From Escherichia coli (GTDB lineage: Bacteria; Pseudomonadota; Gammaproteobacteria; Enterobacterales; Enterobacteriaceae), in the NCBI RefSeq assembly GCF_013315695.1, contig NZ_CP054353.1: a stretch of 64,000 nt of DNA; one strand, 5' to 3'. This document shows, piece after piece, positions 42,001 to 44,230 of the stretch (the first letter of the stretch is position 1; each line of letters opens with the position of its first letter). The position numbers were made by a program.

Positions 42001-44230
42001 CCCTGCGCAATTTCATTGACGCAGGCCAGATCGTCTTTATCTGGGCCGGACGTCAGAACGACTTCATAACCACGAGCATGTAAGGCATCAATCACAGCGG
42101 AAAACTTGGCGTTGTCCCAGCATTTGAAGATTTGCCGCGCCGTAGGTTGGATAACCACATAATTTTGTCCAACACCAGCGTGATCAAGTTCGCGACGCAT
42201 ACGTTTCCAGCTTGCAGGCGGGTAACTCATGGTTGTCTGCTTCACCAACGATTCAAGTCCCAATGGCGTCAGCACGGATAAGTTACTTTCCACCACATTT
42301 CCACCCTGCAACGGCACCAAATGAGTGAAACTATTACGCCAAAAAGCAGACTGCCGATGATGATAATCCTGGGAAATTTTCACACGGGCATTTAATAAGC
42401 GAACCAGTATAGCAACCATCCATTGATCGGTAAGATTAACGATAAGGTCATACTTATTGGCACGTAATACCTTGATGAGATGAAAAAAGTTGGCAATTTT
42501 TTCTGAAGCTTTTGCTTTTTTATTTTTTATGCCGTAGAGCGCGTTAATCTCTGGATTTTCAGACAGGATCGGGATGGTGTCCTGATAAAGCAGCACATCG
42601 ATTTTTGCGTCAGGGTAATTTTTTTTCAGCGAACTAATGACGGGAGTAGTTAATAACATATCCCCATGAAAACGCATCTTAATGAGCAAAATTCTTCGAA
42701 ATGGCTTATCCACAAGTAACTCTTTTTGTTGAGATTATCCGATTAAGGTGAAGCAGAAAAAGCACGCTACCGCCCCAGGCTCAACAGCTACCTGAATACT
42801 GATACCGCACTGATATTGACGCGCTAGTGTATCACTTCTTTCGCGGCAATCCGACCCGAATGATTTTTAAGCACATTGTTGATTTTCAATAAAGAAATCA
42901 ATCAAATAAAATCATTAGCAACCATATTCTTTTACTGTTGCTCTGCGATTCCTTCCTGCACGTACTGCAGAAATCAATGAATCGCATAAAAATACAAAAA
43001 AAGTATAGATGTTCAGCAAGAATTGGCGGGTAAATTGCTATTTAAGTCAAAAACGGGAAAAGTAATGGTAAAGCCACAGCTAAATACATAGAATCCCCAG
43101 CACATCCATAAGTCAGCTATTTACTATGCTCGAATTGCTTTACACCGCCCTTCTCTACCTTATTCAGCCGCTGATCTGGATACGGCTCTGGGTGCGCGGA
43201 CGTAAGGCTCCGGCCTATCGAAAACGCTGGGGTGAACGTTACGGTTTTTACCGCTATCCGCTAAAACCAGGCGGCATTATGCTGCACTCCGTCTCCGTCG
43301 GTGAAACTCTGGCGGCGATCCCGTTGGTGCGCGCACTGCGTCATCGTTATCCTGATTTACCGATTACCGTAACAACCATGACTCCAACCGGTTCGGAGCG
43401 CGTACAATCGGCTTTCGGGAAGGATGTTCAGCACGTTTATCTGCCGTATGACCTGCCCGATGCACTCAACCGTTTCCTGAATAAAGTCGACCCTAAACTG
43501 GTGTTGATTATGGAAACCGAACTATGGCCTAACCTGATTGCGGCGCTACATAAACGTAAAATTCCGCTGGTGATCGCTAACGCGCGACTCTCTGCCCGCT
43601 CGGCCGCAGGTTATGCCAAACTGGGTAAATTCGTCCGCCGCTTGCTGCGTCGTATTACGCTGATTGCCGCCCAAAATGAAGAAGATGGTGCACGTTTTGT
43701 GGCGCTGGGCGCAAAAAATAATCAGGTGACCGTTACCGGTAGCCTGAAATTCGATATTTCTGTAACGCCGCAGTTGGCTGCTAAAGCCGTGACGCTGCGC
43801 CGCCAGTGGGCACCACACCGCCCGGTATGGATTGCCACCAGCACTCATGAAGGCGAAGAGAGTGTGGTGATCGCCGCACATCAGGCATTGTTACAGCAAT
43901 TCCCGAATTTATTGCTCATCCTGGTACCCCGTCATCCAGAACGCTTCCCGGATGCGATTAACCTTGTCCGCCAGGCTGGACTAAGCTATATCACACGATC
44001 TTCAGGGGAAGTCCCCTCCACCAGCACGCAGGTTGTGGTTGGCGATACGATGGGCGAGTTGATGTTACTGTACGGCATTGCCGATCTCGCCTTTGTTGGC
44101 GGTTCACTGGTTGAACGTGGTGGGCATAATCCGCTGGAAGCGGCCGCACACGCTATTCCGGTATTGATGGGGCCGCATACGTTTAACTTTAAAGACATTT
44201 GCGCGCGGCTGGAGCAGGCAAGCGGGCTGA

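Follow-up and report, generated by a model that had tools for sequence, protein, structure and literature searches.

In Escherichia coli, the genes for the lipopolysaccharide (LPS) core include waaQ and waaA, which lie back to back, and the short interval between them carries a match to the ops motif. Does this interval control both sides, and does its ops load the antiterminator RfaH for the waaQ operon? We addressed this question in a 64-kb stretch of E. coli DNA, which was analysed over its whole length and is referred to here as the window. We conclude that waaQ and waaA of the E. coli LPS core locus are divergently controlled from this interval and that its ops loads RfaH for the waaQ operon, a reading to which we assign a probability of about 0.93. 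No evidence contradicting the explanation of the interval as a waaQ/waaA control region was found. The arrangement is already known: the interval corresponds by orthology to the waaQ leader/rirA and waaA promoter region of K-12, and the title of Clementz (1992) describes the two genes as transcribed from divergent promoters. All functional evidence comes from K-12, and for the allele studied here the assignment draws on sequence, position, conservation and the match to mapped K-12 RNA ends.

Genomic Context of the waaQ-waaA Interval

The gene order in the window is selA and the mtl genes, a YadA-like adhesin gene, the lld genes, the waa cluster, spoT, recG and gltS. The interval is delimited by a minus-strand ORF that begins with GTG at 42713 (352 aa) and a plus-strand ORF that begins with ATG at 43126 (425 aa); thus, the size of 412 bp and the bounds 42714..43125 given in the earlier note are borne out by the flanking ORF starts. 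A 651-bp segment spanning the interval matches many complete E. coli chromosomes at 100% identity, and in such identical E. coli records RefSeq annotates the flanking genes as rfaQ (waaQ) and waaA. The names used for the genes of the waaQ operon follow the annotation of identical or near-identical records. From the inferred waaQ start site to the last stop of the operon, the distance is 9.24 kb. The features discussed below are collected in Table 1.

Table 1. Positions in the window of the genes and control elements at and around the waaQ-waaA interval.
Feature	Position	Strand	Remarks
ops 8-nt core copy	5838	minus	antisense within mtlD
YadA-like adhesin gene	10025..15025
ops 8-nt core copy	16849	plus	within lldP
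waaQ operon	33580..42713	minus	nine tightly packed genes (waaQ, waaG, waaP, waaO ... O-antigen ligase gene); from ORFs and gaps
O-antigen ligase gene	33580..34833	minus	last in the waaQ operon
waaQ	41655..42713	minus
AAGAG, Shine-Dalgarno-like	42720..42724	minus	6 nt before GTG; AAGAG...GTG kept across genera
RirA (b4760) homologue	42747..42819	minus	first 73 nt of the waaQ leader; pairwise alignment, ~92% identical to K-12
U5 run	42757..42761	minus	one base past ops
ops element GGCGGTAGCGTG	42763..42774	minus	all 12 consensus positions; non-template (coding) strand of waaQ
JUMPstart (Rfam RF01707)	42763..42801	minus	39 nt, ops at 3' end
ops G10/U11, expected RNA polymerase pause position	42764..42765	minus	K-12 Term-seq 3' ends, transferred by alignment
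JUMPstart stem-loop	42776..42794	minus	CAGGU / 9-nt loop / GCCUG; Rfam structure line
waaQ/RirA transcription start	42817..42819	minus	rirA 5' end at 42819, capped end at 42817; transferred from K-12
Putative waaQ extended -10, TGATACACT	42826..42834	minus	TG 42833-42834, TACACT 42826-42831; promoter role inferred
TCGGAT at -35 position	42849..42854	minus	17-nt spacer; invariant; poor TTGACA match
AT-rich variable spacer centre	42862..43040		32% GC; 25-70% identity to K-12
Conserved island TCAATGAATCGCATAAAAATACAAAAAAA	42973..43002		in the variable centre
Activator-type site AAAAACGGGAAAAGT, waaA-coaD promoter	43049..43063	plus	Reg-Seq -53..-39; good to 1 nt
Proximal waaA promoter	43065..43094	plus	-35 ATGGTA 43065-43070, 18-nt spacer, -10 TAGAAT 43089-43094
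Proximal waaA start	43102	plus	K-12 3808516; 24 nt before ATG 43126; mapped by identity
ops 8-nt core copy	53666	minus	antisense within coding region

The ops and JUMPstart Elements of the waaQ Leader

The earlier note had read the plus-strand sequence cacgctaccgcc as the reverse complement of ops in the leader of waaQ, within a JUMPstart element, and had seen by eye no further copy upstream of the adhesin gene; all of this holds. The plus-strand string reads as GGCGGTAGCGTG on the minus strand, and no mismatch appeared on re-reading. Every position of the consensus GGCGGTAGnnTG is present, including G4, G5, A7, G8, the C3:G8 pair and T11-G12. Of these bases, G4, G5, A7 and G8 are essential for RfaH recruitment, while T11-G12 constitute the pause, with U11 as the RNA polymerase pause site (PMC5995543). 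The element lies at about +46..+57 from the start transferred from K-12 and ~50 nt ahead of the waaQ GTG; with the start at 42819, U11 (42764) is +56 and the GTG is +107. The window holds a single exact copy of GGCGGTAGCGTG in its 64 kb, where dinucleotide-preserving shuffles of the window give a chance expectation of 0.01 (one of 100 shuffles had a copy).

A scan of the whole window on both strands detected no usable ops copy beyond the waaQ leader. An IS1 element and a truncated pseudogene precede the adhesin gene, and no ops-like sequence is present upstream of it. The counts of ops-like matches in the window (at most two mismatches to the 12-mer, or one to GGCGGTAGNNTG) were not above chance. 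The 8-nt ops core recurs three times elsewhere in the window, and the T11-G12 pause dinucleotide is absent from all three of these copies.

Independently of the motif search, Rfam identifies a complete JUMPstart element whose 3' end is ops (RF01707; score 55.2 bits, gathering threshold 35, E = 6e-10, all 38 model positions covered). It is the sole Rfam match in the window, and a permissive Rfam search of the spacer returned, beyond JUMPstart, only chance-level matches to a plant miRNA and a human lncRNA. The 5-bp stem-loop typical of JUMPstart is found 5' of ops, and it has covariation support: across an alignment of 20 leaders, stem pair 2 is A-U (n = 13), G-U (n = 5) or G-C (n = 2), and in Pectobacterium-type leaders it is U-A, the stem positions other than pair 2 being fixed by the search pattern. 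Downstream of ops, waaQ leaders carry a T-run with a median of 6/8 T, versus a median of 3/8 in 88 other JUMPstart loci.

Transcription Start, RirA and RNA 3' Ends

The homologous leader in the K-12 record NC_000913.3 contains a 73-nt ncRNA gene, rirA (b4760), at 3808166..3808238. Its counterpart in the window was recognized by orthologous position and by sequence, with JUMPstart and ops inside it. At the level of sequence, the interval has every feature expected of ops, of JUMPstart and of a RirA homologue. For K-12, the literature, reviews included, gives a dependence of the waaQ operon on RfaH through this site and places RirA in the waaQ 5'UTR (PMC6358824, PMC8745692, PMC5736990); RirA is an sRNA that shares the waaQ start site, and it was reported to bind RfaH and to limit RfaH activity. 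The SMRT-Cappable-seq entries for this locus of K-12 give a capped 5' end at 3808236, with full-length reads through waaQ, waaG and waaP. This end corresponds to 42817 in the window, 2 nt from the rirA 5' end.

The TG-n-TACACT motif is positioned 7-9 nt 5' of the mapped K-12 ends, which is the correct spacing for an extended -10. Further upstream, TCGGAT may represent a -35 element or a factor site; its plus-strand reading, ATCCGA, is invariant in the cross-genus alignment. As for the start of translation, K-12 curation puts that of waaQ 12 codons later, at an ATG, whereas the comparative data favour the GTG.

The 3' ends of the leader RNA in K-12 were taken from the Term-seq tables of Adams et al., whose printed context strings, carrying 10 nt of sequence downstream of the 3' end, were checked against the genome. 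Very abundant ends are listed in the leader at 3808184, which is ops G10 (62,669 reads), and at 3808183, which is U11 (116,952 reads), equivalent to 42765 and 42764 in the window. They fall at +55/+56 and not at +73, and the annotated RirA 3' end has no coinciding 3' end in these tables. The G10/U11 ends, which come from 3'-end mapping and not from a pause assay, are consistent with the ops pause. In the same tables, the intrinsic-terminator score of the leader 3' end is 6.28, and it has no Rho signature. The main text of Adams et al. does not mention ops, RfaH or waaQ.

The waaA Promoter and the Spacer Centre

That the rest of the interval must also hold the divergent waaA promoter had been proposed in the earlier note, and the mapped data place it there: the RegulonDB-validated proximal start of K-12, 3808516 (Reg-Seq), corresponds to 43102, and the block around it matches K-12 at 100% identity. 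The start sits 7 nt past TAGAAT. At both waaQ and waaA, the sigma-70 hexamers are correctly spaced from the mapped start, and both -35 elements are weak. The waaA-proximal block is near-invariant across genera, the exceptions being Kosakonia (-10 TAAAAT) and Shimwellia (-35 TTGGCA). The Reg-Seq supplement gives, in its entry for the waaA-coaD promoter, one activator-type site at -53..-39, and the corresponding sequence AAAAACGGGAAAAGT is conserved across genera. RNAalifold detected no meaningful structure in the conserved waaA-proximal block (-2.2 kcal/mol), which points to conservation at the level of the DNA sequence and fits a promoter with an activator site.

A generic promoter scan missed both mapped promoters. 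Promoter-like hits at 42883..42912 (plus) and 42889..42860 (minus) were discarded: they are no more numerous than in shuffles, lie in the non-conserved centre and match no mapped start. Genomic SELEX data for the K-12 spacer report binding of RpoD holoenzyme and H-NS, and one strain carries an IS1 insertion in the variable centre. Within this centre, the island TCAATGAATCGCATAAAAATACAAAAAAA is identical in all three E. coli alleles, with conservation extending to E. albertii, Citrobacter and Pluralibacter. It could serve as a factor site or be tied to a second, distal waaA start. A repeat search of the spacer returned short AT-rich repeats only, including AGAAATCAAT(C/G)AA at 42893 and 42969.

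Conservation of the Control Elements

Of 5426 complete E. coli genomes, 5424 have the spacer, and conservation of ops, JUMPstart, the -10 element and the GTG start likewise extends to 5424/5426, as well as to waaQ leaders in many genera of the Enterobacteriaceae. Around 4430 genomes possess the spacer allele of the window at at least 99% identity, and around 950 possess K-12-type or ST167-type alleles with 60-80% identity. The 85 nt over the -10 element, RirA and ops retain at least 90% identity in all spacer-bearing E. coli genomes, and ops, JUMPstart and the -10 element are unchanged in three divergent E. coli alleles. Compared with K-12, the spacer is 100% identical over 43041..43125, 80-100% identical over 42762..42861 and 25-70% identical over 42862..43040, save for an island at ~42981..43000. 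The spacer is a mosaic, and conservation across it is confined to the mapped control elements.

Beyond E. coli, a pattern scan in which each species was represented by one genome detected more than 120 copies of JUMPstart with ops, nearly all in Enterobacterales. About 30 of them immediately precede a WaaQ homologue, in most cases together with a divergent WaaA. In the cross-genus alignment of 20 leaders, ops and JUMPstart are invariant, TGnTACACT and AAGAG...GTG are conserved, and every aligned waaQ leader has an unchanged ops. The gene for RfaH is not within the 64-kb window; since rfaH is near-universal in the species (5425/5426 complete E. coli genomes), the source strain almost certainly has it.

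Comparison with Related Systems

The closest relative of the interval is the K-12 waaQ (rfaQ) leader/rirA/waaA (kdtA) region, an orthologous locus with the same flanking genes. The two share, identically or nearly so, ops, JUMPstart, the extended -10, the start position, the AAGAG/GTG region and the waaA-proximal 85 bp. They differ in that the leader studied here is ~92% identical over the 73 nt of RirA, with a U-run 1 nt shorter, and in that the 179-bp centre of the spacer is only 25-70% identical, so that promoter strength and regulation would be transferred by analogy. The downstream operon is also of a different core type, with nine genes, and ends in GT2 and ligase genes.

The leaders of O-antigen (rfb), capsule, haemolysin and F tra operons have in common with waaQ the 39-nt element with GGCGGTAGCGTG at its end, and RfaH is proposed to load on them in the same way. 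In contrast to these, ops in waaQ leaders is immediately followed by a U-run and pairs more strongly with far-upstream sequence, and the waaQ leaders serve chromosomal core genes, whereas the other JUMPstart leaders serve horizontally acquired islands. Relative to the Rfam consensus, waaQ leaders have one extra base in the loop of the JUMPstart hairpin.

Processive antitermination with promoter-proximal loading is also known for lambda Q at qut, lambda N at nut and Bacteroides UpxY. Like RfaH, each of these factors joins a paused complex close to the operon start in a single loading event and then travels with the polymerase. Unlike them, RfaH, a NusG paralogue, recognizes a hairpin in the non-template DNA and additionally recruits the ribosome, and it is not encoded at the locus that it controls.

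Other Readings of the waaQ Leader

The U-run directly after ops raises the possibility that the waaQ leader is also an RfaH-sensitive attenuator, in which a hairpin and the U-run would halt polymerases that travel without RfaH. This would add a layer to RfaH loading at ops and would not replace it. The proposed structure is a long imperfect hairpin between ~42806..42811, upstream of JUMPstart, and the 3' half of ops, followed by the U-run at 42757..42761, with RirA, which has the same start as waaQ, or an RNA related to it as the short product. The MFE structure of the 73-nt leader is indeed this hairpin, the stem of which extends right up to the U-run, but the stability of this RirA-homologous fold does not exceed that of shuffles (z = -0.46). 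Across the 20 leaders, from many genera, 95.6% of the cells pair, changes in the 5' arm turn wobble pairs into Watson-Crick pairs, and one double change replaces G-C by A-U; however, the 3' arm is ops itself, which is invariant for another reason, so that true covariation is not assessable here. The T-run and the far-upstream pairing set waaQ leaders apart from the 88 other JUMPstart loci, yet the feature is missing from Pectobacterium-type, Kosakonia and Citrobacter youngae leaders. The Term-seq end scores as an intrinsic terminator without a Rho signature, as given above, but the K-12 3' ends are placed at ops G10/U11 and not 7-9 nt beyond the stem, the Term-seq tables list no 3' end at 3808166-3808176, and the terminator scan found nothing. 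We judge the evidence against attenuation to be stronger than its terminator-like look, and we consider this added layer unlikely. The same applies to its full form, in which only RfaH-loaded polymerases would pass the attenuator and failed loading would release an RfaH-binding RNA, closing an autoregulatory loop; we regard this loop as doubtful. If it existed, the short leader RNAs ending at the ops pause and RirA would be the products of a checkpoint.

The element might alternatively act mainly as RNA, with the JUMPstart hairpin or the RirA transcript as the functional entity and the DNA match to ops secondary. The Rfam model of JUMPstart is that of a structured RNA, and a stem pair covaries, but conservation is far stronger in the 12 ops bases than in the hairpin, RirA was described as a modulator of RfaH rather than a recruitment signal, and work cited in PMC5995543 points to recruitment of RfaH by ops on non-template DNA alone. 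We therefore hold a primary role of the RNA to be very improbable. As for a functionless chance match to the 12-mer, the exact copy that arose among the 100 window shuffles is the one point in its favour. The full 39-nt JUMPstart context and the position in a mapped leader argue against it, and it is refuted by the invariance of the motif across E. coli and other genera together with the K-12 RNA 3' ends at the pause site, which leaves it with a negligible probability. RfaH loading at ops in the waaQ leader is thus the reading that we retain.

Proposed Mechanism

Pausing, RfaH loading, anti-termination and RirA activity are known from the literature and would apply to this allele by analogy. 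RNA polymerase would transcribe the nine-gene waaQ operon from ~42819/42817, starting at a sigma-70 promoter with an extended -10. After ~45 nt it would transcribe JUMPstart, the last 12 nt of which are a perfect ops, and it would pause at U11 of ops (42764). The non-template sequence GGCGGTAG, exposed in the open bubble, would form a small hairpin presenting G5 and T6 to RfaH, as in the mechanism of ops pausing and non-template hairpin formation, with its defining ops bases, described in PMC5995543. RfaH would bind, its C-terminal domain would refold, and the protein would remain on the polymerase, suppressing pausing and termination and helping the ribosome to load at the weak AAGAG/GTG start ~50 nt downstream. 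Antitermination and ribosome loading by RfaH would allow the whole 9.2-kb operon to be expressed to the O-antigen ligase gene. RirA, as the first 73 nt of the same leader, would bind RfaH and damp the system. On the other side, waaA-coaD would be transcribed from TAGAAT (43089..43094), with the start at 43102 and an upstream activating site.

Biological Significance

The strain shows the standard arrangement of this locus, and the finding brings nothing new for the field. The waaQ ops is a textbook case of operon-specific antitermination. RfaH loading at this site is needed for a complete LPS core, and through it for outer-membrane integrity, serum resistance and O-antigen attachment.

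RNA 3′ Ends and the Translation Start of waaQ

In the published Term-seq tables for K-12 (NC_000913.3), very abundant RNA 3′ ends fall exactly on G10/U11 of ops, the RfaH recruitment site at the 3′ end of the JUMPstart element in the waaQ leader. The text of the paper publishing these tables contains no discussion of them. At the annotated 3′ end of RirA, the 73-nt sRNA assigned to the same leader, the tables list no 3′ end (position 3808166).

The curated waaQ start of K-12 is an ATG at the position matching window 42677, whereas PGAP places it at a GTG (42713). Across genera, conservation extends to the GTG, to a Shine-Dalgarno-like AAGAG and to the 12 codons that separate the two starts, encoding V-D/E-K-P-F-R-K/R-I-L.... 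Since all three are kept, the K-12 start looks 12 codons too short, and from this sequence comparison the PGAP start looks correct.

Features of the window and their K-12 counterparts
Feature	Window	K-12 NC_000913.3	Remark
ops G10/U11 3′ ends	42764-42765	3808183-3808184	Term-seq tables
waaQ start region	42677..42713	3808098..3808134	
YadA-like adhesin gene	10025..15025		1666 aa
slmA	49038..49676		
pyrE	49713..50369		

The waaQ-waaA Spacer

The center of the spacer between the divergent waaQ and waaA genes (42862..43040) is AT-rich, its GC content being 32% compared with 50% across the window. E. coli alleles diverge sharply within this center, whereas the flanks on both sides are conserved. 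This pattern is consistent with a recombination junction where the variable core-type cluster meets the conserved waaA side. For the K-12 spacer, H-NS binding has been reported. We also observed a repeat, AGAAATCAAT(C/G)AA, at 42893..42905 and 42969..42981 (copies 76 bp apart), the second copy of which overlaps a conserved island at 42973..43002; the repeat may represent a factor-binding motif.

One strain, E. coli SW07163, carries IS1 in the middle of the spacer (L005 1766..2463, approximately window 42912), which leaves intact about 215 bp upstream of waaA, as well as the entire waaQ promoter and leader. Such an arrangement is what one would expect if each promoter is located near the gene it drives. 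In Citrobacter youngae (L026) and Citrobacter sp. Cu233 (L042), waaA is separated from the waaQ leader by about 3 kb instead of 0.4 kb or so, and the leader is devoid of the TGnTACACT element and the U-run; thus, these loci have gained additional DNA, and another promoter has taken the place of the original one. Exact JUMPstart and ops copies were also found on short contigs labeled Arthrobacter, Erysipelotrichia MAG, Wohlfahrtiimonas MAG, and Peptococcaceae MAG (L021, L040, L067, and L080), most likely due to enterobacterial contamination or mis-binning.

Gene Content and Core Type

The interval directly 5′ of the YadA-like adhesin gene (8872..9981) is occupied by an IS1A-type element together with a truncated DUF3251 pseudogene, and it contains neither ops nor JUMPstart. 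E. coli FDAARGOS_497, whose spacer is identical to that of the window, encodes a reverse-transcriptase-family protein between slmA and pyrE (L001 27123..28082); in the window these genes are just 36 nt apart, hence the insertion is absent.

The penultimate operon gene encodes a GT2-family glycosyltransferase in the window (34879..35862; this version was detected in 1834 of 5426 genomes) and a GT25-family glycosyltransferase in FDAARGOS_497 (L001 12540..13313). We presume that the core types are R1 and R4, respectively. As the two genes accompany identical spacers, one control region serves different core types.
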